Assembly: GCA_964512325.1 (NCBI GenBank)
Contig: CAZEGN010000001.1
Span: 89,483 to 153,482 of the forward strand
Source: an uncultured Candidatus Peribacteria bacterium
GTDB lineage: Bacteria; Patescibacteriota; Gracilibacteria; RBG-16-42-10
Length of the DNA: 64,000 nucleotides
Direction: 5' to 3'
Below are positions 14,086 through 27,830 of the stretch, one piece after another. Within the stretch, counting starts at the first letter, position 1. The number at the start of each line of letters is the position of its first letter. The notes under the pieces are model-generated. The model worked only from the letters and a program-made list of their open reading frames with translations. It made no database searches and was not told where the DNA came from. A program made the position numbers and the translations under genes.

Positions 14086-14187
14086 AAGAGCATGAACCTA
14101 GCAATTTAAAATTAAGATTTTGTGATTCTTCACTACTTTTTAATAGTGATCAAGAACATTATTCTAGAGCCATAGAAGAGTACTAGT

Positions 14188-14841
14188 CTACAAAAACTCT
14201 TTGCACTTTTCTACCACTGCAGCAGCCATTTCATCACTCCATTGATGGGTATGTTTAGATAAAACTGTAGCATCGGTCACCAGCGCACGTGCAATTTCCA
14301 ATTGGTCCAAAGGTGGAACGAAAAGATCATTTTCAGCAAATACAAGATTTACCGAGCCCGCTACTGCATGATACGTATAGTTGGTAATCAGACCGGGACA
14401 CGCTAACACCACTTTTTTTACCAATTTCGGTGTAAACAAATGAGCCAATAAGCTAATAATTGCTCCCTGGCTATATCCTACTAGTATCACCTCCTTATAA
14501 TATCGTTGTATTGCTGACACCATACCTCCTACATGATCTAGTGCTAGCTCGATATCATCAATATCAAGCTCCATAGGCAGTTCAACATGGCTTCCCTTAA
14601 GCTTTGATAAAATACGACACCAATAATACCGCTCACTGCTAGTTCTTCTTAGTCCTACTGCAGCCATAACATCTGCTCGAATATGTTGCTGTAACTGCTC
14701 TACCTTTTTGGCTGTTTCAGCCAAAGAAACAAATGCACCATCTAGAAAAAGTACCGCACTGGCCGTTCTTTTATCAACAGGAAGCGACTCGATATCTTTT
14801 ATGTCTCTTAGTAACACTACATTAATAATTAATGAGGACAA
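14188..14841 (-). CDS. alpha/beta-hydrolase (carboxylesterase/phospholipase-like)
   Basis: LVGYSQGAII nucleophile elbow (GxSxG). Its size and late His are typical of small serine hydrolases. Confidence 0.6.
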   Translation of the reverse strand: MSSLIINVVLLRDIKDIESLPVDKRTASAVLFLDGAFVSLAETAKKVEQLQQHIRADVMAAVGLRRTSSERYYWCRILSKLKGSHVELPMELDIDDIELALDHVGGMVSAIQRYYKEVILVGYSQGAIISLLAHLFTPKLVKKVVLACPGLITNYTYHAVAGSVNLVFAENDLFVPPLDQLEIARALVTDATVLSKHTHQWSDEMAAAVVEKCKEFL

Positions 14842-14960
14842 GTATAAGACGCGTTATATTGAAAGAATACTGCTCACATTAAAAAACACCTGCGATATCC
14901 TAGATTGTGTAAACACTAGTATTACAGATAGCGGCGAGGTGCCGAGAGCCGCTCAGTTAG

Positions 14961-14988
14961 TTGACTATACGTGATATTTCAGTATGCT
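14961..14988 (+). promoter_or_regulatory. candidate promoter of tRNA-Arg
   Basis: TTGACT - 16 nt - TATGCT, ending about 19 nt upstream of the tRNA 5' end. Confidence 0.35.
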
Positions 14989-15006
14989 AGGCATGCTCTT
15001 TTATAT

Positions 15007-15083
15007 GTATCCGTAGCTCAGCTGGATAGAGCGCAACCCTGCGGAGGTTGAGGCCAGAGGTTCGAATCCTCTCGGATACACCA
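15007..15083 (+). tRNA. tRNA-Arg, anticodon GCG, CCA encoded
   Basis: Hand-folded cloverleaf. Acceptor GTATCCG/CGGATAC, D arm GCTC-AGCTGGATA-GAGC, anticodon arm CAACC-CTGCGGA-GGTTG (U33, GCG, G37), T arm AGAGG-TTCGAAT-CCTCT, A73, CCA. Confidence 0.9.
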
Positions 15084-16523
15084 ACGTTGACGATCGTTAC
15101 ATTTGAGTATCAAATCAAATGGTTCGTAGGCTTCGTATACTATTTTTTTGCCTTCGAGCCTGAGGTTCTGAAGTGTCAGTTTTACTATTTGCCTTTTCTG
15201 TTCGACTTCTGAACCCACGAATAGTTCGTGAGCATGCTTAGCAAGCCTTAATACGCATTCAGCTGTGGTGTAATAATTGTCCTCGGCGTTTTTTAAGAGA
15301 GCGAGTCTAGCCTCAATGTCGCTTATTTTATCCTGGAACTGTTGCTGGTAATTGTCATACTCGCTCTCAGTAATACGCCTGTCGAGTCTATCCATGTACA
15401 ACCTTTCGCGTCGACCCAAGTACAATTCTCTTTCTTTAAGCAGCTGATCACTCTGTTCTTTTCGATACTCCATCTTGCCCTTATGTAGATTTTTTAAACT
15501 ATTTGTCAGATCTTCAAGAACATCCTCAGGAAGCTGCATCCCTTTAAAAACTATCTCAAGCTGAGATGTGATATCTTCTTCACGTACCCATGGTGCGCCA
15601 TGTTTCCCATTGTATTGGGTGCAATGGTAGTAGACGTGGCCTTTATGCTTCTCTGGAGTAATAGCCAAGCCACAGTCAGCACAGCGCAATAAGCCACGGT
15701 AATAGTAGGTTTTACCGGCATACTTGAATGGCTTCTTACAAAAACCAGCCTTGACCTGCTGCACCATATCAAACAGCTCTTTAGAGATAATGGGTTTGTA
15801 CCTGTGTGGGTAGGGTTTATCATCCCACTTCATGACACCATAGTAGAATGAATTCTTCAAAATTTTATCTAAGTATCCTTTTGACCAGTCAATACCATAG
15901 TCTTTCTTCAACTTTGCCCTTAAGAGTTCCATCGAAAAAGCCTGGGATGCATATAATTGGTACACCTCCAGAATAACTTTACTAAAAAATGCATCATGCA
16001 CATTATCCTTTTGCCCATTTTCCGTAACAACACATTGATATCCACGAGGAGCTTTTGCAGGATACTCACCCTTTAATAACTTTTGCTGTTGCGACCTCTT
16101 CACGTTATCTCTGAGCTGTAAAACGTAGGATTTGGCAAACATTACGCCCATATCCCAACGCATAATGTCAGAACTGTTAGAATTTTTAGAAATAATGAGG
16201 CCTTCCCTGAGAAAGTGGATTTCAAGCTTGTCTCTTTTGCATAATTCATCAAGCACAGGACTCTCTTTGAAGCTTCTTTGCAAACGATCTATTGTCTCAA
16301 TAATCAAAGCAACTTTCTCATTACTATTTTCGATCTCAACAATTACATCTTCAAATCTTTTTCGTTCTTCCTTCGTAGAGCTCTCATCAATCTTATGCTC
16401 TTTTTTGATCTCAAGGCCTTTTGCCGAACAGTATTGACGCATTTTTGCAACCTGTGCAGGAATCGAATAGCCTTCCTGCATCTGTTCCTTCGTCGACACT
16501 CTAGCAAAGATAATGGCTTTCAT
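15018..16523 (-). CDS. large serine recombinase (integrase); last 66 nt antisense to tRNA-Arg
   Basis: MKAIIFARVSTKEQ resolvase-type catalytic Ser domain, recombinase domain, Zn-ribbon CADCGLAITPEKHKGHVYYHC and a coiled-coil tail. I prefer the Met at 16523 over the track start at 16595. The stop TGA (15018-15020) lies in the tRNA D arm. Confidence 0.85.
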   Translation of the reverse strand: MKAIIFARVSTKEQMQEGYSIPAQVAKMRQYCSAKGLEIKKEHKIDESSTKEERKRFEDVIVEIENSNEKVALIIETIDRLQRSFKESPVLDELCKRDKLEIHFLREGLIISKNSNSSDIMRWDMGVMFAKSYVLQLRDNVKRSQQQKLLKGEYPAKAPRGYQCVVTENGQKDNVHDAFFSKVILEVYQLYASQAFSMELLRAKLKKDYGIDWSKGYLDKILKNSFYYGVMKWDDKPYPHRYKPIISKELFDMVQQVKAGFCKKPFKYAGKTYYYRGLLRCADCGLAITPEKHKGHVYYHCTQYNGKHGAPWVREEDITSQLEIVFKGMQLPEDVLEDLTNSLKNLHKGKMEYRKEQSDQLLKERELYLGRRERLYMDRLDRRITESEYDNYQQQFQDKISDIEARLALLKNAEDNYYTTAECVLRLAKHAHELFVGSEVEQKRQIVKLTLQNLRLEGKKIVYEAYEPFDLILKCNDRQRWCIREDSNLWPQPPQGCALSS

Positions 16524-16527
16524 AAGA

Positions 16528-16704
16528 TTATTTAATACTATCGCGTTCAAGAAAAAGGTCGAGCTGTTCCTTACTGATGCGGTATTGCTTACCAACCTTG
16601 TAAGCCTTTAATTTACCAGCCTTTACCCATCGATACACAGTAAGATAAACCACTTTCAACATCGCTGCTACTTCATCAAGAGTGTAATATTCTATTTGCT
16701 GCAT
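16528..16704 (-). CDS. excisionase/MerR-type helix-turn-helix DNA-binding protein (58 aa)
   Basis: Own translation: MQQIEYYTLDEVAAMLKVVYLTVYRWVKAGKLKAYKVGKQYRISKEQLDLFLERDSIK, the typical 'excisionase family' HTH pattern. It is below the ORF-track size cut-off and sits 9 nt after the Rep-like stop and 4 nt before the recombinase ATG. Confidence 0.6.
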   Translation of the reverse strand: MQQIEYYTLDEVAAMLKVVYLTVYRWVKAGKLKAYKVGKQYRISKEQLDLFLERDSIK

Positions 16705-16712
16705 GATATGCT

Positions 16713-17873
16713 TTAGTTATCTTTATTTAACATCTTACCAAGGCTAGAATCAAGTTTAAGTGGAACAAAAGCTATAAGATGTTCACGAACCAGATCAAAG
16801 GTGTCCTTGCTTGTGGGTAAAGAAATGTCTCTGGCTTCACCCATCAAACGGTACCAACTTCGTGAGTGGCATCGTCCAAACATTAGGCGCAACTCACGAG
16901 TACTAACCCTATCAAGTGCCTGTTTAAGTCCGAAAATTTGTATGATACGACTAATACTCAACTTAGGGTTATGTATTATTAAATCAGCTAGAAAGTCTTT
17001 ATCTGATCTACTTTGATACTTTGCATAAAATGGTCTCTTCTTTTCCATTTCATCAAGAAAGTGAAGAAGTATGGCTTGAGACTTTTTCGAGTCAAACAGA
17101 TCTCGTAGTGTTAAATTGTTAGGCATATTAATCGTCTTCATCAACTGCTTTACCTTTGCTCTTTTGTTCAACCGTACTTCAATGCGCAACACTTCAAATG
17201 GTTTCTTGGTATCAAGCTGGTCGAACAACGATAATTGAATGCCATTGTCCTTTTCAATAGCTCTTTTACCACTTACCTTAGCCTTCTCAAGATCTTTACG
17301 TTTGTCATAAAAGGCTACCTCATAGGAATTACAATGCCATTTGAAGCTGGTCCCATCATTACGAAAATCCGTTTGGTTAACATCTACTGAAAGATTGATA
17401 TTAGCTTCTTTTATTTTCCCAATGTAATAATGCGGCGTAGTACCATCGGTTAAAACGATGTTCTTAGAGTAATGAATCGCTGACACGGGAGCACTTATTA
17501 AAGCATAAGACCAAACCAGAACTCCCATTTCTTTCAAACTCTTTTCTAGCAAATCTATCACTACAGCGAACTCATCATTTTGTAACTCATCAAAGTTGTT
17601 TCCAAATAGTAGCTTCGACAAAGACAACTCAATCCTGAGGGATGCCTCGCAATGCTTGCTCAAGTGATTGTAACGATTTGTAAGAGTAAGACGAGGCCTA
17701 TAAATCCCATTACGCAATTCAGTAGGAGTAGGATTTTGTTTAGAAACAATATAGCCTCTACCACCGAATCTGGACTCATCATCCAATATCCAGCGAGCTG
17801 AAGGTGTGAATTTGTCAGGTTCAAGAATAGTGTATTTCCCCTCGCTAAGCACCAATACTATCGTGTCTATCAT
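16713..17873 (-). CDS. replication-initiation-like protein (phage/plasmid gene II/X-type?)
   Basis: The N-terminal MIDTIVLVL... and LRIELSLSKLLFGNNFDEL resemble, from memory, phage/plasmid replication proteins. No HUH motif was identified. The context with the recombinase supports the call. Confidence 0.4.
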   Translation of the reverse strand: MIDTIVLVLSEGKYTILEPDKFTPSARWILDDESRFGGRGYIVSKQNPTPTELRNGIYRPRLTLTNRYNHLSKHCEASLRIELSLSKLLFGNNFDELQNDEFAVVIDLLEKSLKEMGVLVWSYALISAPVSAIHYSKNIVLTDGTTPHYYIGKIKEANINLSVDVNQTDFRNDGTSFKWHCNSYEVAFYDKRKDLEKAKVSGKRAIEKDNGIQLSLFDQLDTKKPFEVLRIEVRLNKRAKVKQLMKTINMPNNLTLRDLFDSKKSQAILLHFLDEMEKKRPFYAKYQSRSDKDFLADLIIHNPKLSISRIIQIFGLKQALDRVSTRELRLMFGRCHSRSWYRLMGEARDISLPTSKDTFDLVREHLIAFVPLKLDSSLGKMLNKDN

Positions 17874-18138
17874 ACAGCTTAGTTACTTTTTCAAATTTAG
17901 TGATAATGAGCTGCTCAACTAGCTTGGCCATGCTTCTGTTAATTGGATAAAAGATGGCCAAGCTATTGTCTGCCACTTTGCGTGTGGGATAGGTTAAACG
18001 GTATCCACCATGCGGCCTGGTATAAATTCCGATTGAACCACAATAAAAAGCCGAACCAAAAACAAAACTGGCAAAGCCAACTAATCCTAACTTGGGTTTA
18101 ATTGGTATTACTTGAATCTCTGTGATCATCTGCTGCAT
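17845..18138 (-). CDS. SpoVG-like small nucleic-acid-binding protein
   Basis: ITEIQVIPIKPKLGLVGFASFVFGSAFYCGSIGIYTRPHGGYRLTYPTRK...IFYPINRSMAKLVEQLIITKF follows the SpoVG pattern (beta strands, then 'P..R' and 'hP.n...r..i'). It overlaps the Rep-like start by 29 nt. Confidence 0.4.
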   Translation of the reverse strand: MQQMITEIQVIPIKPKLGLVGFASFVFGSAFYCGSIGIYTRPHGGYRLTYPTRKVADNSLAIFYPINRSMAKLVEQLIITKFEKVTKLYDRHDSIGA

Positions 18139-18341
18139 AAGGCTGAGTTAGTTTTAATTTACGATCGACTTCAATAAGAATAGAAAAGAAAGCCGTCAGA
18201 CGATCTAGAGCTTCAACTGACAACTTCTTTTCCGGCAATGTTTTCTTTACGTCATCATCACTCACTGGCATTCTCTAAAGTCGCCGTGAGATTAGAGAAA
18301 CCAGAGAGGTACCCAGTGGGACCCGTTGTGGTACCACTAAG

Positions 18342-19505
18342 TTAAGGCCAATATATTGGATTCACTTTAACTGAGCTTTTAGTAAAGATTAGGAATTGCA
18401 CCACACCCGATTTGGCAGCAATCCTTCGGACAATCGCTTTACAGACCTCATAGAACTTATCCCTCTCTTCTTTTCCAAACTTCTCAACCTTTATACCTTC
18501 TATTAGCTCGTTGAGTTCATCGTAAAACCATTCCTGGTGTACTGCGTTATCGTCCTTCAGCACAATATTCAACAGATCCCTAGTCTTTGAGGGCCTAAAA
18601 GCAAGACGACACCCATCCACGATTAGCTCTCCCAACTCCTTTTCGTAAATCCATTTGATCTTTTTTCCGGTTACGGGAGAAACTTCAACATCCACACCCT
18701 GCATACTCGACAAATAGTGTTTAGTGTAAAGGTGAACTCTTTCTAGGCAAGTGCGGTGTTCTTCCATTTCGTTCATATCCTGCGCAGAGAAACTACTATT
18801 GATACCATTATCTCCCATCAAATGCTGTATTTTCTTGAAAGCTGAATGGGTAGCTAATACCATGAGTAGCTTTTCACTTTTAATGTACTCGGCACTCGCT
18901 ATTTCGTAATCCCTATACAACGCACAAAAACCGGTCAATTTATCCCAAGCAAACCATATCTCAAACGACTGTAAGCGTTCAATCCTACTGCTTTCAGCCT
19001 TCCACTTATTATAAGCTGGCTCAAACTGCAGATCCTCTATCTGCTTTGTATTTGTAATAGTAGCGAATTGCGTTACAAATTTATCAGCATCTCGACATGT
19101 AGATCCTAGCAATAAATGAAATGTTCTACCTAAAACAAAGAACTTGGTCTCAGTCACGGCTGCCGAAGTAAGAATTCTATTCTCTTCATGAGCATAAAAC
19201 TCTGCCAGAGGAAACTTTATTTCTTTGAGCTCAGCATTATTCTGTTTTATAAACTCCACTATTGCCTTAAATACAGATTCCATTTCCGTATTAGCAGCAT
19301 GAGCGAGTTGATTCAACAAAGCTAAACCATGCTCTTTGTGTTCGTGAATTGCCATGACAATAGGCCCAAGCACATCGTTTTCATCGTAAAGACTTATATA
19401 CTCATACATTGCTTGAAAAAAATCCGTAGGCTTGCTAGCAGCCCTTGCCCTAAGATAGATGCTTTCCAGTTTTTCTAACAATAGTTCTACTTTTCCCATA
19501 ATCAT
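18342..19505 (-). CDS. hypothetical protein, 387 aa, no recognisable domain
   Basis: Long uninterrupted ORF on the same strand as the element genes. No motif was recognised. Confidence 0.5.
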   Translation of the reverse strand: MIMGKVELLLEKLESIYLRARAASKPTDFFQAMYEYISLYDENDVLGPIVMAIHEHKEHGLALLNQLAHAANTEMESVFKAIVEFIKQNNAELKEIKFPLAEFYAHEENRILTSAAVTETKFFVLGRTFHLLLGSTCRDADKFVTQFATITNTKQIEDLQFEPAYNKWKAESSRIERLQSFEIWFAWDKLTGFCALYRDYEIASAEYIKSEKLLMVLATHSAFKKIQHLMGDNGINSSFSAQDMNEMEEHRTCLERVHLYTKHYLSSMQGVDVEVSPVTGKKIKWIYEKELGELIVDGCRLAFRPSKTRDLLNIVLKDDNAVHQEWFYDELNELIEGIKVEKFGKEERDKFYEVCKAIVRRIAAKSGVVQFLIFTKSSVKVNPIYWP

Positions 19506-19586
19506 TACATCTTCAAAGCACTCGACATTAGCATGAAAGAAAAATGAAAATGATGCAAGAATATCTACAGTTGTAGACTCTAGTGA

Positions 19587-20234
19587 TTACTTCAATAGAT
19601 TCTTGATTTTACTACATGTAACTTTACGTTCAATAAAACTTATTATTTTCAGATAAAGGACTCTAAGTTCGTCTGCAATATCAGCCATATATATATGGTA
19701 CCCATCAATTCTTAACTCATGGGCATCCGAGGACAAATTTAAGACGGGCGAATTCCCTACGTGACCTTCAAATCGTGTTTCAGCATGCTCAACAGCAGCA
19801 CGCATACTTGCTAATAATGCAATATTATTTCCTGTAATTGAAGGAAATACCGCCCGCATCTTATTTATGCGGTTTAGCGCATTTAGAAGATTTTCAAGGT
19901 GATCAATGATAGTAGCAGTATATATTGGTTGAACACCATTAATTAGAACCGATCTAAACTTAGGCTTAAACCTTCGACTAAATCGTCTATTAATTTGTGA
20001 GAATGTAAGTCTAGATTCTTTTACCTCTTCAAGAACAACCTCCCGAACCATTGTGTATTCCCACACCGCTTTATCAATAAGTCGCACTAAAATTACCAGC
20101 CCTTTCTGCTCTTTTGTGGATAATGCTTGATTGAGACCACAGAAAGACGCTGCAAAGTAGCAGCCCGTTGCTGAAGGTATATCATTTTCAATACTCGGCA
20201 TTTTACAATTTTGCATTCTCATAGTGTATTTCAA
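19587..20234 (-). CDS. hypothetical protein, 215 aa, no recognisable domain
   Basis: The ORF starts 8 nt after the tyrS stop on the same strand. No motif was recognised and the start codon is uncertain (several Mets in the first 12 codons). Confidence 0.5.
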   Translation of the reverse strand: MKYTMRMQNCKMPSIENDIPSATGCYFAASFCGLNQALSTKEQKGLVILVRLIDKAVWEYTMVREVVLEEVKESRLTFSQINRRFSRRFKPKFRSVLINGVQPIYTATIIDHLENLLNALNRINKMRAVFPSITGNNIALLASMRAAVEHAETRFEGHVGNSPVLNLSSDAHELRIDGYHIYMADIADELRVLYLKIISFIERKVTCSKIKNLLK

Positions 20235-20242
20235 AGTTTAGC

Positions 20243-21376
20243 CTAGGCTCTAGTCACAAGACATGCTTCTAATTCATCTAGCATCTTTCTCCCTTCACCT
20301 TTACTAAAGTGCTCTCTCACTGGAGCTAAAAGTTCAATCAGGTATTCAGCCACAAATTGTTTCAGATCTTTAGGATGAATCATTCCATCCTTGAACAGCT
20401 GTACTAATTCTGGAAAAGAGCTAATGTTGAGATTACCACCAAACTTTTCATCTCGTTGGATAGTAACACTTGATTCACGAGAGAAGATGAGGTGCTCAAC
20501 CCAATCTAATACGGGGTTGAATTCAGTTTCCTTTTCTGGACAGAAAGCTTTCATGACTTTTCTTTGTATTTCTTCTGGCTCGTCATGAATAAAGACTGCA
20601 CTGTCTGGTTTCGATTTACTCATCTTCATGGACGACCAAATGTCTTGCCTATCCATATCAGTAGGAATAGGCCACACACTTGGTTTTTGTAATCCGAGGA
20701 GGAGATGATGATGAACAGCTACAGGTTTTACTATATTTCCCCCTAATCGTAGGGGACTGATAGTCAGCTTGTCAGCAACATCTCGTGCAATCACCTGTGC
20801 CTTTCTCTGATCCATACCTGCATGAGCTATGTGAATTCCTTGCACAAAAATATCTGCTACCTGCATAGCTGGGTACATGAGCTTAGCAAAATCTACTTCA
20901 TCACCTTCTTTTCTTCCAAGAATTGTAATACTGCGCTTCATACGCGAAAGCGTCGTGTGTTTACCTACTTCAACTACTGTATCCCAGTATTCAGGATGTT
21001 TGCTATAGAGTTCAGAACCAAGGACAAAAGTAAGCTTATCTGGATTCCCACCAAGACATTTAAAAGCGATTTTGAGTCCTTCCTGAAAGTAGCCGATAGC
21101 AATTTTCTTGATCTTAGCTCTGTCTCCCCCTAGTTTATCATTAATCCAAGTATGCCAGTCCGCCAAAAAGACGTGACAGTTTACACCAGCATCTTGGAAG
21201 TCTTTCACTTTTTGCATACACACCAGACCTGTCCCTAGATGAATCTTTCCAGAGATCTCGAAACCAATGTAATGGTTGAGCGGCTGTGACGACTCTAGCA
21301 TTTTCTTCAGGTCTTCCTCTGTCATGATATCTTCTGTGCGCGCTTTGATACGAGCAAGTTGGTCTTTGGCAATCAT
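20243..21376 (-). CDS. tyrS: tyrosyl-tRNA synthetase, archaeal/eukaryal type (no bacterial S4-like C-terminal domain)
   Basis: A class I aaRS with HYIGFEISGKIHLGTG (HIGH region), FLADWHTWINDKLGGD, YPAMQVADIF..IAHAGMDQRKA and a literal KMSKS. The pattern is collinear with my recollection of Methanocaldococcus jannaschii TyrRS (AYIGFEPSGKIHLGHY, LLADLHAYLN, YPIMQVNDIH..GGMEQRK, KMSSSK, KFGGD, LHPMDLKNAVAE). Confidence 0.85.
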   Translation of the reverse strand: MIAKDQLARIKARTEDIMTEEDLKKMLESSQPLNHYIGFEISGKIHLGTGLVCMQKVKDFQDAGVNCHVFLADWHTWINDKLGGDRAKIKKIAIGYFQEGLKIAFKCLGGNPDKLTFVLGSELYSKHPEYWDTVVEVGKHTTLSRMKRSITILGRKEGDEVDFAKLMYPAMQVADIFVQGIHIAHAGMDQRKAQVIARDVADKLTISPLRLGGNIVKPVAVHHHLLLGLQKPSVWPIPTDMDRQDIWSSMKMSKSKPDSAVFIHDEPEEIQRKVMKAFCPEKETEFNPVLDWVEHLIFSRESSVTIQRDEKFGGNLNISSFPELVQLFKDGMIHPKDLKQFVAEYLIELLAPVREHFSKGEGRKMLDELEACLVTRA

Positions 21377-21389
21377 AGGATAAAATTAT

Positions 21390-21465
21390 TGGTCCAGCGG
21401 GTAAGATTTGAACTTACATAACCTGGTTTTACAGACCAGTGCATAAACCACTCTGCCACCGCTGG
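21390..21465 (-). tRNA. tRNA-Tyr, anticodon GUA, C1-G72, 5-nt variable loop, CCA encoded
   Basis: Hand fold of the - strand: CCAGCGG TG GCAG AGTGGTTT ATGC A CTGGT CTGTAAA ACCAG GTTAT GTAAG TTCAAAT CTTAC CCGCTGG A CCA (76 nt). Confidence 0.9.
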
Positions 21466-21470
21466 TGAAA

Positions 21471-21512
21471 CAAAAAAAGCCACCCTCAACATAAAGATTA
21501 TGCAAGGGCGGC
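21471..21512 (-). terminator. intrinsic terminator of the T-box leader
   Basis: - strand A-GCCGCCCU ... AGGGUGGC-U stem (extendable via GCAUAA/UUAUGU) followed by UUUUUUU. It ends about 6 nt before the tRNA-Tyr 5' end. Confidence 0.75.
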
Positions 21513-21784
21513 TATATAATTTCATAATTAGACCGCGGTACCACCTTACTTTAAATAAACTATTACTAGCTTATTACTTTTCATCCTCAATCAAGGACTT
21601 ACGCTGTAACGGGCGATCCCGTTGAACTCTACAAGCCGAAGCTTTCGTGTTCACCTTTCCGAAGGAGTATTTCCTACTCTCATGATACGATAGCCTCGCA
21701 ACGACCGGCTATTTCGAGTGTCACCCATGATTTTGTACTGCATCCTTCTTCACTAAGTTTAGGAAGACCGAATTTTCAAAGAGC
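21471..21784 (-). promoter_or_regulatory. T-box riboswitch leader (presumably Tyr-specific)
   Basis: AGUAAGGUGGUACCGCGGUC (21550-21531) matches the T-box consensus AANNNGGGUGGNACCGCG. The antiterminator is GUAAGG/CCUUGC + 7-nt bulge UGGUACC + GCGGU/GCCGC, and its 3' strand is the 5' arm of the terminator. UGGU is complementary to the ACCA end (A73) of the adjacent tRNA-Tyr. An AUGAGAGUA motif (21683-21675) resembles the Stem I K-turn/specifier 5' side. Confidence 0.75.
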
Positions 21785-21790
21785 ATCTGC

Positions 21791-21818
21791 ACTATAGCAT
21801 CTTTTTACAGAATGTCCA
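21791..21818 (-). promoter_or_regulatory. promoter of the T-box/tRNA-Tyr/tyrS transcript
   Basis: - strand TGGACA (21818-21813) - 16 nt - TGcTATAGT (extended -10, 21799-21791). Confidence 0.5.
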
Positions 21819-21902
21819 TTAAGACACCACTACGTCATCCATTTAAAAATGGCTATAACTAACTGATATTAGCGCAATTTCATCACATCAAAACTGCTTA
21901 GC

Positions 21903-21930
21903 TTGTCGAAAAGTCATAAGAATGTATGAT
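21903..21930 (+). promoter_or_regulatory. candidate promoter of the 22096 operon leader
   Basis: TTGTCG - 16 nt - TATGAT. The predicted start coincides with the first base of the 14-bp P1 helix at 21937. Confidence 0.4.
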
Positions 21931-21936
21931 ACTAAC

Positions 21937-22072
21937 GACGTTTCACTTCAATTTGTTTTTCTTGGTCATTTTTGTGCGCATCTGTGGTAACGCGGGGTCA
22001 ATCCCACTTGCTTACAGATGCCTTCGCAAGAAGACTGAAGTGAGACGTCCAAGATGGGGTTGGTCCCATTTT
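21937..22072 (+). ncRNA. unclassified structured 5' leader (three-way junction plus terminator-like hairpin)
   Basis: P1 21937-21950/22036-22049 (14 bp, one G-U). P2 21978-21985/22014-22021 (8 bp). P3 CUUC-GCAA-GAAG 22022-22033 (GNRA loop). Then hairpin AUGGG(G)-UUGG-(U)CCCAU + UUU at 22054-22072, 24 nt before the ATG. Confidence 0.45.
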
Positions 22073-22095
22073 GCTTAATCACTTAAGTTATTTTT

Positions 22096-23781
22096 ATGAA
22101 AACTGTTTACCTGGTACGGAAATTGATGCTACTCAGCATCGCGTTGGTATCATTAATCGGTCCTGCACAGGCAAATGCAGATACATATGTGCGTGGTTAC
22201 TATCGCAGTAATGGGACATACGTACAGCCCCACTATCGATCTAGTCCTGATAGCTCTGTGACAAACAATTATAGCTATTGTGGTAATACAAATCCTTATA
22301 CAGGCACTACTGGCACACAAGGTTGTGGAAGTGGAAGCAGTAGCTATAGTCTCCCTAGTTACACCGCACCAAGTTATGTTACTCCAACGCCTATCAGTTA
22401 CCCCTCTATACAAGTTCCATCATATACACCATACACCTATACCCCACTTGCAATTCCTACCCATACACCTTATGTATATACTCCTCCTGCAGCTCCCACA
22501 TACGAACCTCCCATTGTAGCACCGCCATCAAATAATACAGAATCACATGATACTACCAATAATACTTATGTTACAGCTCAATTAGTAGCAGACTTAGGAA
22601 ATAACCATCTACTTGTTCTTGATGGTCAGGAAGCATTCTTTGATATCACCTATCATGGATGTCTTAGTACTAACTTCAATAAGGGTGAGTCATTACATTT
22701 TAACCAAGCACAAGGTTACTTTCTTGCTGGCAATGTAACTGCTTATGATCGCTGCTCTATAGGTGAAGCCAAGAAGCTTAACCTGTTTAAGTATGCTCTT
22801 TCCGATGTCATTTTAGCTTCTAGCCAGGTTGTCCTAGAAGATGCAAACGGTCAAAAGTGGATTAGCACGTATTACGAGGGCTGTTCCAGTTTGGCTCTGT
22901 ATAAGGGGCATGACGTAGTAGTAAACGTAGACGAGAATGGCTCTGATGATCGCATAATTTTGGTACAAGAAAAAGAAACATGCCTTTTTAGCAAAGCGCA
23001 ATTGTACAATCCTGAATTGGCTACTACAGATATTCCTTTACCAACAACATCGTCAGAGTTTTTAGACGTACATGATGACACCCCCTTTGCTCCGGCTATC
23101 CGGTTTTTGCAAAACAGAGGGATTGTCGCTGGTCTTTCTGATGGGACATTCCATCCCAATAACTTTCTCACCAGAGCTGAATTACTTAAGATGGTTCTTC
23201 TGGCCAAACAAGATAACGGTATTGGTGAAAGCTACAGTAGCAGTTGCTTTTCTGACGTTGATGCGACCACTTGGTATGCAAGATTTGTATGCTATGCCAA
23301 GGAAAATCAGATTATTGGGGGGTATGATGATGGGACATTTAAGCCAGGACAACCAGTATCATACGTAGAAGCCCTGAAAATCACTCTAAATATACTTGGT
23401 CACACACCAAGTACTACAACTAATCCCTGGTATGACGCTTTTCTTACCAAGACAGACGAAGTCAAAGCTGGAGTGGCAGATACTAAGCTTAATGATCCGC
23501 TAACCCGAGGAAAAATGGCAGAGCTAATCACTAGAATTATTAAGTACGATGAAGAAGGACCAAATAGTAGCTATCTTACAGGTTACCAACCACTTAAATC
23601 TTCTGTATTACAACCCATAGTTTCTGCAGCTCCAGAAAGTGTATCGACATCTAAAGTGCCATCTAGTACTTACTACACACCTGAAAGTGCTACAGCACTC
23701 TGTAATGATGGCACATACAGTTTCAGTGCAAATCGACAAGGTAGTTGTTCACACCATGATGGGGTTGCTCAATGGTTATAA
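22096..23781 (+). CDS. secreted protein: YxRxNGTYVxPHYR motif, Tyr/Thr/Pro-rich spacer, two SLH domains, C-terminal DUF3761-like Cys motif
   Basis: Signal peptide. YVRGYYRSNGTYVQPHYRSSPD. SLH units FLDVHDDTPFAPAIRFLQNRGIVAGLSDGTFHPNNFLTRAELLKM and FSDVDATTWYARFVCYAKENQIIGGYDDGTFKP. Tail CNDGTYSFSANRQGSCSHHDGVAQWL. Confidence 0.65.
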   Translation: MKTVYLVRKLMLLSIALVSLIGPAQANADTYVRGYYRSNGTYVQPHYRSSPDSSVTNNYSYCGNTNPYTGTTGTQGCGSGSSSYSLPSYTAPSYVTPTPISYPSIQVPSYTPYTYTPLAIPTHTPYVYTPPAAPTYEPPIVAPPSNNTESHDTTNNTYVTAQLVADLGNNHLLVLDGQEAFFDITYHGCLSTNFNKGESLHFNQAQGYFLAGNVTAYDRCSIGEAKKLNLFKYALSDVILASSQVVLEDANGQKWISTYYEGCSSLALYKGHDVVVNVDENGSDDRIILVQEKETCLFSKAQLYNPELATTDIPLPTTSSEFLDVHDDTPFAPAIRFLQNRGIVAGLSDGTFHPNNFLTRAELLKMVLLAKQDNGIGESYSSSCFSDVDATTWYARFVCYAKENQIIGGYDDGTFKPGQPVSYVEALKITLNILGHTPSTTTNPWYDAFLTKTDEVKAGVADTKLNDPLTRGKMAELITRIIKYDEEGPNSSYLTGYQPLKSSVLQPIVSAAPESVSTSKVPSSTYYTPESATALCNDGTYSFSANRQGSCSHHDGVAQWL

Positions 23782-23793
23782 ACGACAGCCCTT

Positions 23794-24300
23794 ATGACCA
23801 TGCTTCAAAATCTAAAGATTATAGGCATCACTATAGTTTCTTCAATATCAGGACTGGCAGGAGTTTTGTATGGCATGAATTTGAACGCACAATTGAATGA
23901 CTTAAAAAGCAATTTCAACGCTACAGCCTCCGGGTTAAGTGCCACTCTTACAGACACCAAATCTATTACACGCGTATCAGAAGCAAATATAATCATTCAG
24001 CCAACATTCCCTGATGGCGAAGTCGAAGTGTACATTAATGACCGATTGATCAAAACTGTATTGGTGAATGCAGGTGTAATTAATACAACGATACCGCTTA
24101 TGAGTGGCGTTAACAGAATTAGCATTAACCAAAAGCTAAGTAAGTTATGGATGAGTACTGAAACTCAAGAACAAAAGGTAAAGAACATTTTGTACGCACC
24201 ATCGAGTGCTTCGGCTATTTGTAGCGACTTGAGCATTAGTTACAGCGCTAGCCGAAGAGGCACTTGTTCGCATCATGGTGGAGTTGCTGAATGGTTATAG
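23794..24300 (+). CDS. membrane-anchored protein with Ig-like module and DUF3761-like tail
   Basis: N-terminal TM. The PDGEVEVYINDRLIK module is paralogous to the next ORF. Tail CSDLSISYSASRRGTCSHHGGVAEWL. Confidence 0.55.
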   Translation: MTMLQNLKIIGITIVSSISGLAGVLYGMNLNAQLNDLKSNFNATASGLSATLTDTKSITRVSEANIIIQPTFPDGEVEVYINDRLIKTVLVNAGVINTTIPLMSGVNRISINQKLSKLWMSTETQEQKVKNILYAPSSASAICSDLSISYSASRRGTCSHHGGVAEWL

Positions 24301-24318
24301 TTTTACAAAGAACACTTT

Positions 24319-25512
24319 ATGATTACAAAAGATGAAATAAAAGTTGCTGCTATTACTTCTACTATAGCAATCGTCATACTTCTTGCCTTTTTCTACGGTA
24401 TTAATCAGTACACAAAGTTCCAAGATGTGAAACAAAAGGTGCTATCCCAAACAGGGTTCAATGCATTTATTAACGGTCCACACAATACTAGTAATGCTAA
24501 TATCACCCTCGCTTTTTCAGCAGTTGTACCTGATGGCGAAGTTATTGTACGTGTAGATAATAAGGAGATGATCAGAGAACCAATAACAACTAGTATCGGT
24601 AATCTCACACTGAATTTAAAAAAAGAAGGGAATTATACTATTCAAGCGCACCAACAGCTCCATCAATGGGGTTACGTGCTAGAGAGTCCATTACTCTCAT
24701 TAGGTAACATTACATACGATCATACTGCTCCTACCGGTACCCTAAAAAAGCTTTCTTCCCTACCTAAAGAAACCAACAGTAATACTGTTTACGTTTCACT
24801 TGCACTGGAGGCTAGCAGTATAGAGAAGGATGTAACTTTAGCTATTAAAAGCAATGATCATACGATTGATACAGTAAGTGCAAATACCAACGGTGTATTT
24901 GAAAATGATATGAATCTGTATGAGGGGGAGAACTCCATCGCTTTTGTTCTAAGAGATGGAGCAGGTAATGAGTCTCTTCCCTTGGCGACTGCTATGATCA
25001 CTGTTGATGGGACACCTCCAATGCTAGATACTAATTCTCAATACTCTTGCAGCGCGCAGACAGAATTTGCTTGTGTGTGGTTCAATGGAGAATTGAGAGG
25101 TCCGTTATATGGGACACTATGGGCACCAATTCTAGGCCGATACAAAAACATCAAGTCACTCAAAATAAATGGAAAAGACATTACCCTAAAGGCTGACGGC
25201 AGTATTAGCCAACGTATTGCCTTATATGTAAAACCAGGTGAAAACAAATATGAAGTACGTGCGATGGATAAGATGGGCAATCAAAATACAAGTTACTTAT
25301 CCCTATATTGGAGCTCAGAGAATGATAGTAATTCGAGTAGTGATGACTATTGTACTTTCAACTGTAGCGGTCATGAGGCAGGTTACAACTGGGCTGAAGA
25401 TAATGACATTAGTAACATATATGACTGTGACGGGAATTCAGATTCTTTCAATGAAGGCTGCCAGGAGTATGTAGAAGAGAATTATCCTGATGAGGGAGAA
25501 TTTGACTATTAG
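24319..25512 (+). CDS. membrane-anchored protein with Ig-like repeats and Cys-rich C-terminal motif
   Basis: N-terminal TM, PDGEVIVRVDNKEMI module and bacterial-Ig-like segments (DHTAPTG..., VDGTPPML). Tail CTFNCSGHEAGYNWAEDNDISNIYDCDGNSDSFNEGCQEY. Confidence 0.55.
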   Translation: MITKDEIKVAAITSTIAIVILLAFFYGINQYTKFQDVKQKVLSQTGFNAFINGPHNTSNANITLAFSAVVPDGEVIVRVDNKEMIREPITTSIGNLTLNLKKEGNYTIQAHQQLHQWGYVLESPLLSLGNITYDHTAPTGTLKKLSSLPKETNSNTVYVSLALEASSIEKDVTLAIKSNDHTIDTVSANTNGVFENDMNLYEGENSIAFVLRDGAGNESLPLATAMITVDGTPPMLDTNSQYSCSAQTEFACVWFNGELRGPLYGTLWAPILGRYKNIKSLKINGKDITLKADGSISQRIALYVKPGENKYEVRAMDKMGNQNTSYLSLYWSSENDSNSSSDDYCTFNCSGHEAGYNWAEDNDISNIYDCDGNSDSFNEGCQEYVEENYPDEGEFDY

Positions 25513-25777
25513 AAATATAGTGCAAAGAGGCTAATTAAGAGTACATTGCAATTTGCATTCTTAGACTCATGTTAGAATAGCATCGAAACTCTTAACCATA
25601 CCTTGAAGCAATTGCAGACTTAAGTTAAGCTTAATTTTGCCGTTCCTGAATGCGTCTACTAGGGGACACCACGAGCACGAAATATATTTGCTTGCTGTTA
25701 GTTTTGAGAACACTCAGTTTATTATATGGCTTTTTTGAGGTGCTCGAAGGATGAGGAGAAGGATAAGGGGGAAAATA

Positions 25778-27071: not shown

Positions 27072-27737
27072 ATGTCTAAACAAGTTTGGAGGTTAATGTC
27101 TGCAGTGTGGGCCATGTGGAGAAGCTTAATTATGAAAATGAGCTTTTACCCCCTTTTGTTTTGCTTGCTGGGTGGGATTATACTCAATTTCACGCAAAAC
27201 AATGTGCTGAGTCTCCAAATCACCAGCTTTTTTATTTGGATCATTGTTGCCTTACCACTATGGTTTTTAGGACAACATTGGGTTTTTCTAGTTCCTGTTG
27301 TAACTATGAATACAGGCCTATCTTTTTTTAGCTCAACCTTGTTTGGCTACCACGTGATCTTTTTATCACTTTGCTTATCTTTGTTGCTCTGTATCATTTA
27401 TGCTCCCCGCTCTTTATTTAGTCTTTACATTTTATTCGAAGACAAAAATAAACATCCTTTGGCCTTATCCTTTGCACTAACGGAAAACTCTTACACCAAA
27501 CTTTTACTGCATGTGCTTGTATTTAGTAGTGGCAGTATTTTATTCCTATGGCTTGTTCCATTCTTATTAGGACTGATTGTGAGCCACTTTTTACTCCCCT
27601 ATTCCTCTTTTTACGTAACAACACTTTCAATTGTGCGCTTTATAGCAACTATCATGTGTGTTGCATTGACTACTTTGGTCTGGAACAGACATTTTTATGG
27701 ATTGTATAAGAGAGCGAAGATGAGTCATAGATTATAA
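27072..27737 (+). CDS. polytopic membrane protein, unknown function
   Basis: About six hydrophobic helices. The start may be the Met at MKMSFYPLL. Confidence 0.5.
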   Translation: MSKQVWRLMSAVWAMWRSLIMKMSFYPLLFCLLGGIILNFTQNNVLSLQITSFFIWIIVALPLWFLGQHWVFLVPVVTMNTGLSFFSSTLFGYHVIFLSLCLSLLLCIIYAPRSLFSLYILFEDKNKHPLALSFALTENSYTKLLLHVLVFSSGSILFLWLVPFLLGLIVSHFLLPYSSFYVTTLSIVRFIATIMCVALTTLVWNRHFYGLYKRAKMSHRL

Positions 27738-27765
27738 ATTTAAGAATCAGGGGGCAGACCCAAAA

Positions 27766-27792
27766 GAGGAGATGCGCTTATACGCTCTCCTC
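27766..27792 (+). terminator. hairpin between convergent genes (weak terminator)
   Basis: GAGGAGA(T)GCG - CTTATA - CGCTCTCCTC followed by CAATTT. It is nested inside the outer pairing AGGGGGCA (27750-27757) / TGCCCCCT (27825-27832). Confidence 0.4.
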
Positions 27793-27830
27793 CAATTTAC
27801 AATCTATAATTTATAATCCACACTTGCCCC

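Follow-up and report, generated by a model that had tools for sequence, protein, structure and literature searches.

Targeting of tRNA genes is usually taken, in textbook and database practice, as a property of tyrosine integrases, and the Islander paper states that serine-family integrases are not known to target tRNA genes (PMC4383910). Durrant et al., in their broad survey of large serine recombinases (LSRs), make no mention of tRNA, and a literature search for tRNA-targeting serine integrases found none described besides the ssrA islands of Dehalococcoides (McMurdie et al. 2011, BMC Genomics 12:287, PMC3146451). Here we analysed a stretch of 64,000 nucleotides (the window; G000:C1:89483-153482) from an uncultured Candidatus Peribacteria bacterium with a 1.27-Mb assembly of 41 contigs. 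It contains an LSR gene whose open reading frame (ORF) ends inside, and antisense to, a tRNA-Arg gene. We consider it highly probable that this gene belongs to a 10,588-bp LSR element inserted at the 3' tip of the tRNA, with the phage-type attachment site attP embedded in the LSR ORF itself. For a serine integrase element with a self-embedded attP at a tRNA 3' tip, the ssrA islands are the closest published case. The original prediction, which a model had made from the letters of the window, had already called the target class unusual for a serine integrase, and this stands with that one partial precedent.

Like the element described here, the Dehalococcoides islands are integrative elements with variable cargo that carry a CcrB-like LSR at their left edge; the gene always overlaps attL, enters a tRNA-like gene in antisense at its 3' end and has its stop codon outside the island. 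The authors suggested that the enzyme, DsiB, is complete perhaps only on the circle (PMC3146451). The differences are nevertheless substantial. The Dehalococcoides target is tmRNA and not tRNA-Arg, and the islands have a 20-bp direct repeat with a T-loop crossover, whereas the common core is here 6 bp at tRNA nt 71-76. The islands also carry modules for a small serine recombinase (DsiA), ParB and Mom, whereas Pfam and PHROG scans of the ORFs of this element detected neither a further ORF with a resolvase domain nor a match to ParB or Mom. A detached conserved tail of the recombinase and family-wide targeting of multiple tRNAs, both presented below, are not described for the ssrA islands.

The LSRs of phages and integrative and conjugative elements (Listeria A118/LI, phiC31, Bxb1, TP901-1, SPbeta SprA and the CcrAB recombinases of SCCmec) resemble the enzyme of the window in their resolvase, recombinase and zinc-ribbon (ZD) domains with a coiled coil, in their short att sites lacking long repeats, and in a ZD-motif-like box whose place in attP is 5 bp further outward than in attB. 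CcrAB, like the enzyme here, targets the 3' end of a conserved gene. The attB sites known for these enzymes fall in protein-coding genes or intergenic DNA, in contrast to the tRNA used here. Moreover, attP lies outside their integrase ORF and the enzyme is unchanged by integration, whereas here attP lies within the ORF. An attP inside the integrase's own gene is found among tyrosine recombinases, in Myxococcus phage Mx8 IntP and in the 'suicidal' archaeal integrases of the SSV1 type. In these systems, too, integration alters or splits the integrase ORF and the free and integrated forms differ; however, the chemistry is that of tyrosine recombinases, and SSV splits its gene into two large parts where here the last 33 residues are exchanged. 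Genomic islands formed by tyrosine integrases at tRNA and tmRNA genes share with this element the tRNA 3' target, the integrase beside the tRNA and a tRNA that stays functional, but they use another enzyme family and chemistry and displace a tRNA fragment of tens of nucleotides rather than 6 nt (Williams 2002; PMC4383910). No phage-integrase domain was found among the element ORFs scanned with Pfam, including 168-aa and 397-aa cargo ORFs and a second, paralogous element of the same genome.

The features that define the two ends of the element are the following.

15007-15083, plus strand: intact tRNA-Arg(GCG), detected by ARAGORN and Rfam (68.9 bits).
15018-16523, minus strand: LSR, 501 aa in its integrated form, with PF00239, PF07508 and PF13408.
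15078-15083, plus strand: attL core ACACCA (A71, C72, discriminator A73 and CCA; tRNA nt 71-76), the sole sequence common to both ends.
25567-25671, minus strand: native end of the LSR gene, detached from its body, W-CPLVDAFRNGKIKLNLSLQLLQGMVKSFDAILT and a stop codon (25567-25569), also the P' arm of attP.
25666-25671, plus strand: attR core ACACCA; beyond it, at 25672, host DNA (the former B arm) restarts with CGAGCACGAAAT.

The tRNA-Arg(GCG) gene is present in a single copy and is the only CGY-reading tRNA-Arg gene of the genome. No tRNA-Arg(ACG) was found among the detected tRNA genes of the genome, and CGY codons are decoded by tRNA-Arg(GCG). In bacteria CGY codons are usually decoded by an ACG anticodon modified to inosine.

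The LSR gene starts at the ATG at 16523 (MKAIIFARVS), which replaced a TTG at 16595 as the start, and its 96% identical relative P0001 is also 501 aa long. Residues 1-480 are encoded by element DNA (15084-16523). The final 21 residues, W481 to S501 (W-CIREDSNLWPQPPQGCALSS), are encoded by the antisense strand of tRNA-Arg, through the CCA, acceptor stem, T arm and anticodon arm to the D stem, where the stop codon (15018-15020, minus strand) lies 66 nt inside the tRNA. The original prediction was accurate on this overlap: ARAGORN and Rfam agree on an intact tRNA at 15007-15083, plus strand, the recombinase frame runs 66 nt into it, and the last ~21 residues come from the antisense of the T, anticodon and D arms with the stop in the D stem. 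The chance of 21 open codons is ~0.36, so the length of the overlap alone has no statistical weight. The register of the overlap is a different matter. The conserved Trp codon of the LSR (TGG) is the antisense of the CCA encoded by the tRNA, and this correspondence, unlike the overlap length, is far beyond chance.

What revealed the far end of the element was the missing part of the recombinase. At 25570-25671, on the minus strand and 10.6 kb from the LSR, lies a stranded native tail of 34 codons, which from 25671 reads TGG TGT CCC CTA and opens with the same TGGTGT as the LSR/tRNA junction. Positions 25671-25594 gave the best tblastn match in the window, across six frames, to the native tails of the homologues P0070 (E 0.001) and P0035 (E 0.012); the match begins exactly at the W, and this is the sole such tail in the genome. 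Joining 15084 to 25671 in a reconstructed junction preserves the frame and yields an LSR of 514 aa, compared to 501 aa in the integrated form. Because the same ACACCA and the detached tail occur together at 25.6 kb, the element spans 15084-25671, and the identity between attL and attR ends after these 6 nt. No meaningful direct or inverted repeats, and no spare inverted attP, were found over 14.8-28.2 kb.

These ends assign attP to the 3' end of the LSR ORF (in LSR sense ...GATCGTCAACGT-TGGTGT-CCCCTAGTAGACGCATTCAGGAAC...), with the consequence that integration replaces the tail of the enzyme by tRNA antisense. The tRNA-Arg is the B' arm of the former attB and forms attL together with the LSR 3' end; attB of the window, as reconstructed, consists of the tRNA acceptor end and the downstream flank. 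The common sequence places the 2-bp crossover within ACACCA, most probably at tRNA nt 71-74, with A15078-C15079 or adjacent bases the likeliest position. An att site at the tRNA 3' region, as originally predicted, agrees with ACACCA (tRNA nt 71-76) as the only sequence common to attL and attR, although the attP inside the recombinase ORF and the tail 10.6 kb away had been missed and the flagged stretch of 1.7 kb falls far short of the 10.6-kb element. The further suggestion that the element supplies or shares tRNA sequence applies to the last few bases at most, and not to the 66-nt overlap, which is host tRNA.

We considered whether the element might have integrated in the manner of a tyrosine integrase, with a crossover deep in the tRNA (anticodon or T loop), so that it would carry a tRNA 3' half and the 66-nt overlap would be element DNA. 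This is the classic geometry of tRNA-targeting islands (PMC4383910), the Dehalococcoides ssrA islands with their 20-bp repeat and T-loop crossover share it (PMC3146451), and in a few members of the family (L060, L080, L091 and L105) the tail resembles tRNA at a place where ARAGORN detects none. Nonetheless, attL and attR cease to be identical after ACACCA, no displaced tRNA fragment longer than 6 nt is present at the far end or in the genome, and no tyrosine recombinase occurs among the scanned element ORFs. The search for a partial tRNA-Arg copy that had been proposed with the original prediction returned nothing above chance across the genome, as is expected because the enzyme is a serine integrase. 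A crossover deep in the tRNA is therefore very improbable.

A sister element supports the insertion of a 10.6-kb element at the tRNA 3' tip. The nearest named RpoB relatives of the window's host are Candidatus Abawacabacteria (candidate phyla radiation (CPR)/Gracilibacteria), and the sister lies on contig L047 of another Abawacabacteria host, whose RpoB is ~83% identical to that of the window host. The two LSRs (P0001 in L047) are 96% identical in amino acid sequence. At the nucleotide level the elements are 89% identical over 14960-18769, which takes in the tRNA, the LSR gene, the core genes described below (HTH, p386 and SpoVG-like) and part of a 387-aa gene, and weaker similarity continues to ~19559, whereas the host flanks are only ~70% identical. 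Where the window has its cargo, L047 has a type I restriction-modification system. The two share one further block, of 81 nt (window 25601-25680, 85%). L047 has the same attL and attR cores, and its tail stands at the far end against a different B flank (...GGGGACACCA/CGATCGCGAC) and is 80% identical in amino acid sequence to the window tail (E 5e-12). Two other readings of this comparison were rejected. A small RNA in the conserved intergenic block 25601-25680 is explained by the tail and attR, and a right boundary at ~19559, where the similarity to the sister ends, would have the frame enter the 387-aa gene with no CCA and no tail, the true tail being at 25.6 kb.

We compared the locus with relatives that carry the tRNA and lack the insertion, as had been proposed with the original prediction. 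In five of them (G001, of the same genus, and G002, G003, G004 and G005) the tRNA-Arg is 97-100% identical, and 100% identical in the element-free G001, G003 and G005, and no recombinase is present there. DNA similarity of the relatives to the window ends exactly at 15083/15084; left-flank synteny is kept up to the tRNA and the right side returns only at 27072-27830. Element-free arrangements of the sister's flank were also found. In G003, the attR-side flank of L047 lies at the end of contig C12, which has a 13-nt overlap (GCGATCGTGGTGT) with the start of contig C10, and C10 runs straight into tRNA-Arg, so that the flank abuts the tRNA without an element. In G005, the tRNA-Arg and a 76% identical flank lie on one contig with no element between them; the flank alignment starts ~0.47 kb from the tRNA (range ~0.3-0.5 kb), with ~0.3 kb of extra sequence. 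Neither a domesticated gene without boundaries nor an empty site outside the tRNA, the outcomes named with the original prediction as contrary to it, was seen.

Two observations concern the surroundings of this tRNA in the relatives. An alpha/beta-hydrolase ORF (14188-14841, minus strand), within 14146-14959 of the window, is missing from G001 between collinear flanks, a second indel at the same locus; the ORF stands just ahead of the promoter region of tRNA-Arg. Directly after tRNA-Arg in G003 comes a dispersed repeat, ~100 nt long and containing GCGATCGC palindromes, which breaks the assembly at the C12 end and C10 start. It occurs in at least 10 other places of G003, and its hairpin loop has opposite orientations (GACTA or TAGTC) in G003 and the L047 host.

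Since similarity to the sister fades over 18769-19559, the element might be limited to a core of 4.5-5 kb (15084 to ~19560 or 20240), with the block of tyrosyl-tRNA synthetase (TyrRS) and SLH genes beyond it belonging to the host or to a second, decayed element and the tail left over from another or a tandem integration. The G+C content of the cargo, which matches that of the host, the variable hotspot downstream of tRNA-Arg in all relatives, and a second element with two candidate tails in the same genome, which hints at tandem arrays, are compatible with this. The tail, however, is single in the genome and 80% identical to that of the sister, which adjoins host flank beyond the cargo; no internal att-like core or tail was found at 19.5-25.5 kb; neither the 12 closest relatives nor any sampled genome of the same class has the archaeal-type TyrRS of the block; and family cargo regularly lies between core and tail or LSR. 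We regard a small core as an improbable alternative to the 10,588-bp element, though the least improbable of those considered.

We next examined the family to which the LSR belongs. There are 2028 LSR homologues at E<=1e-20, and the clade is large in CPR bacteria; it also occurs in metagenome-assembled genomes (MAGs) labelled Dependentiae (Babeliaceae) and Chlamydiae. We collected 80 metagenomic homologue loci, 72 of which have enough sequence beyond the gene end. A convergent tRNA in register with the conserved W codon was present at 53 of these 72 (offset 0 in 45; 8 without an encoded CCA). tRNA-Asn was targeted most often, and after it Asp, Glu, Arg, Gln, His, Trp and Ile. In relatives of the host, LSR homologues adjoin tRNA-Asn, Glu, Pro, Gln, Met, Lys and Thr in the same register, and those in MAGs labelled Saccharibacteria and Chlamydiae were found at tRNA-Gln and tRNA-Tyr. 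Taken over the clade, this register is seen at tRNA-Asn, Asp, Glu, Gln, Arg, His, Trp, Ile, Tyr, Lys, Pro and Met. All 120 homologue C-termini compared contain ...KPFDTILNYADRQxW[LC]. What follows the W varies: tRNA antisense in 61 (through the T-loop, as DSN), early stops in 42 and native tails, for example WLPLVNMFLNREIDF..., in ~16.

The split gene also recurs. In 10 family elements with the attP-in-ORF state, detached homologous tails lie at the far end on the LSR strand, with common cores of 6-9 nt such as TGGCTCCC and TGGCGG. The tails comprise 34-40 codons in 10 of 11 elements and 21 in L128; their mean identity is 48% compared to 54% for the enzyme body, with some pairs at 83-87% vs 60%. 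Four family elements have TTG, AAG or GTG in the attR copy where attL has TGG, with the next 6-7 nt intact. This suggests, on the simplest reading, hosts without an encoded CCA, which would put the crossover on the acceptor-stem side of CCA and, in the window, at nt 71-74. No other tRNAs, by which CCA encoding could be judged, were present in loci L074, L075, L061 and L087. One locus, L049, encodes an LSR that is 61% identical and has a native tail and no tRNA, with the SpoVG and p386 genes at the opposite end, and looks like a free form. At L060, L080, L088, L091 and L105 the tails resemble tRNA antisense (WLLGHDSNVQP, WLPREDSNL) and ARAGORN finds no tRNA; these may be fragments of tandem or decayed integrations, or attP variants with a longer tRNA mimic.

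The family data also bear on the possibility that the recombinase is a domesticated or immobile gene that happens to abut the tRNA through a chance open frame, with no att site. The ~1 in 3 chance of 21 open codons would allow this, the tRNA has no direct repeat, and no excision product appeared in a junction scan of metagenome contigs. Against this, the LSR is absent at the tRNA in five relatives, the element retains 89% nucleotide identity in a host with ~70% identical flanks, the W-codon/CCA register recurs at many tRNAs and a matching detached tail exists. A domesticated gene is thus already largely refuted and is the most remote of the alternatives to an inserted, att-bounded element.

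How the enzyme might recognize a tRNA end was examined in the att sites, with positions numbered from the T of TGG. All 10 attB sites examined have the T-loop box TTCGAAC at index 17, and 7 of 8 native attP sites have a TTCGAAC-like box at index 22, a result reached in 0 of 20,000 shuffles. For the Listeria integrase, Rutherford et al. (2013, PMC3783163) showed that the ZD motif occupies bp 11-19 of attB and bp 16-24 of attP, 5 bp nearer the centre in the former. If the T-loop box is set at bp 11-19, the central dinucleotide falls on index 4-5, the GT of TGT, corresponding to tRNA nt 71-72; this centre agrees with the common core and with the marginally best dyad centre. By analogy, the ZD would read the T-loop box TTCGAAC in attB and a T-loop-like box ~5 bp further out in attP. 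We lean slightly towards this reading and the exact crossover derived from it, and hold both with less confidence than the insertion itself. The T-loop-like box accounts for the conserved L/I-R-T residues (CTT CGA ACT) in many native tails, and part of the tail conservation may be a constraint on att-site DNA.

Several points weigh against this picture. The window derives from a MAG, its cargo has the G+C content of the host, and an exact degenerate-pattern scan of metagenome contigs for attB, attP, attL and attR junctions gave 0 matches. In the same-genus G001, unrelated DNA follows the tRNA, and the window's own attB is thus reconstructed. The tail diverges faster than the enzyme body between the window and L047 (63% vs 96%), and in the AlphaFold2 model of P0070 the tail has a pLDDT <50 and offers no docking information, leaving any protein function of the tail putative. 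In attP sites of the window type, the box is weaker and lies at index 22-23, and that of the window, ATTCAGGAAC, has three mismatches. Finally, dyad-symmetry scoring of attP gave offset +4 as best overall by a marginal difference, a weak signal that does not fix the centre.

In the mechanism that we propose, the LSR inserted the element at the extreme 3' end of tRNA-Arg(GCG) and left the tRNA sequence unchanged. Integration cut the LSR gene after codon 480/481; the integrated gene reads the tRNA antisense, adding 20 accidental residues, while the native 33-residue tail is stranded at the far end. Excision would restore the 514-aa enzyme. The predicted circle junction joins 25671 to 15084 (...CTAGGGGACACCA/ACGTTGACG...) and the predicted empty-site junction 15083 to 25672 (...GGATACACCA/CGAGCACG...), and the element may be mobile at present. 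A more speculative extension, which we put forward tentatively and consider rather less likely than the T-loop reading, is that this CPR serine integrase clade uses the universal tRNA 3' architecture as attB, with the ZD reading the T-loop box and the crossover at the acceptor-stem top, and that the attP in its own ORF mimics it with a 5-bp outward shift of the box. The circle alone would then yield the full-length 'integration' enzyme and the chromosome a truncated isoform, a pair that would serve as a state sensor or a control of directionality, and retargeting between tRNA species would need few changes in the 6-9-nt core.

Should the inferred mode of integration hold, island finders that rely on a displaced tRNA fragment would overlook a major class of mobile elements of ultra-small bacteria. 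The rule by which serine integrases discriminate attP from attB would gain a natural example that can be read from sequence, with the tRNA T-loop as the attB box, and the self-splitting gene would provide a testable model for how a unidirectional integrase senses the free and integrated states. For inserting large payloads into genomes, serine integrases are the tools of choice. If the mode is true, enzymes landing on conserved tRNA ends would find ready sites in many genomes and would be natural candidates for targeting such tRNA genes in arbitrary organisms.

The genes next to the LSR form the conserved core of the element.

16528-16704, minus strand: HTH_17 (Xis/AlpA/MerR-like) protein, 58 aa, PF12728 E 7e-17, matching PHROG excisionase and DNA-binding families.
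16713-17873, minus strand: p386, a conserved core protein of 386 aa, characterized by its AlphaFold2 fold and matches in BFVD.
17845-18138, minus strand: SpoVG-like core protein, 97 aa, PF04026 E 1.4e-5, under the gathering score.
18098-18271, minus strand: 57-aa ORF with no family match.
18342-19505, minus strand: 387-aa ORF with no family match.

The domains of the recombinase (Resolvase PF00239, E 7e-15; Recombinase PF07508, E 9e-11; Zn_ribbon_recom PF13408, E 6e-7), its short att sites and the lack of long repeats assign it to the large serine integrase class. It matches the integrase family phrog_95 (E 7e-53), and the predicted catalytic residues R8 and S10 (MKAIIFARVS) are invariant in an alignment of 32 family members. 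In the AlphaFold2 model of the homologue P0070, a coiled coil of two long helices (residues 332-379 and 385-411) is inserted into the ZD, and the LSR body is otherwise normal.

A helix-turn-helix protein of 58 aa directly upstream of the recombinase had been noted in the original prediction as a candidate directionality factor. The gene is real and lies 4 nt upstream of the LSR gene, and its product may be a directionality factor or a regulator. Its steady partner across the family, however, is the Rep-like p386 gene and not the LSR gene: it directly follows p386 in 25 of 59 family loci, often with cargo between HTH_17 and LSR. In 35 of 59 family loci a p386 homologue precedes the LSR gene on the same strand (on the opposite strand in one case, L102), and in 20 of 59 a SpoVG-like homologue lies directly upstream of p386, giving the conserved core order SpoVG-like, p386, HTH_17. 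The region 18098-19505 is the last stretch common with the sister element.

p386 has 1547 homologues, none with a Pfam domain. Its AlphaFold2 model (pLDDT 81.5, pTM 0.79) found no match in a PDB fold search and matched BFVD folds with E values from 1e-8 to 3e-4 and TM 0.41-0.57, including an Inoviridae 'Replication-associated protein G2P'; the motif Y189-D190-K191 is invariant. The model thus suggests that p386 is probably a rolling-circle replication initiator with a filamentous-phage G2P-like fold, and that the element is probably a small integrative, plasmid-like replicon that replicates by rolling circle. Searches of the 386-, 387-, 215- and 57-aa ORFs against Pfam, PHROG, NCBIfam and PADLOC gave no matches, and PHROG and PADLOC-type scans found no capsid, terminase, relaxase or defence-system matches in the element.

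The remainder of the element is cargo.

19587-25512, no strand assigned: variable cargo region between core and tail.
19587-20234, minus strand: 215-aa ORF with no family match.
20243-21376, minus strand: archaeal-type TyrRS (NF006330, 423 bits; best PDB match P. horikoshii 2CYC).
21390-21465, minus strand: tRNA-Tyr(GUA), 76 nt, with a short variable arm and the archaeal/eukaryal C1-G72 pair.
21501-21762, minus strand: T-box leader (RF00230, 71 bits, under the gathering score).
22096-23781, plus strand: SLH/DUF3761 protein, by domain matches.
23794-24300, plus strand: DUF3761 protein, by domain matches.
24319-25512, plus strand: Ig-like protein of 397 aa with glucodextranase-B-like domains, by domain matches.

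Because it lies inside the att-bounded element, the cassette of T-box, tRNA-Tyr(C1-G72) and archaeal-type TyrRS (20243-21762, minus strand) is mobile cargo. It is carried in a host that retains its own bacterial TyrRS (G000:C12:21216-22427) and its canonical 86-nt tRNA-Tyr (C2:80183-80268). The archaeal-type TyrRS occurs in 51 of 301 Patescibacteria, and in G174 and G196, its two best matches and from other CPR families, a short tRNA-Tyr adjoins the gene. The three cell-surface-type genes at 22096-25512 (plus strand) are also element cargo; many SLH paralogues are found elsewhere in the genome.

A second member of the LSR clade is present in the same genome at C5:45712-47248 (locus L040, 5713-7248). 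This LSR is 39% identical to that of the window and ends inside tRNA-Asn(GTT) with the tail WLPRLDSNQ*, and a p386 homologue and a SpoVG-like gene are adjacent. A detached tail for it was not found by homology. A search with the core gave two candidate tails, at C5:57136, 11.4 kb away (WLPLEYTLRTTF...), and at C5:66374, 20.6 kb away (WLPLLVSLRTCS...), and this second element may be a tandem array.

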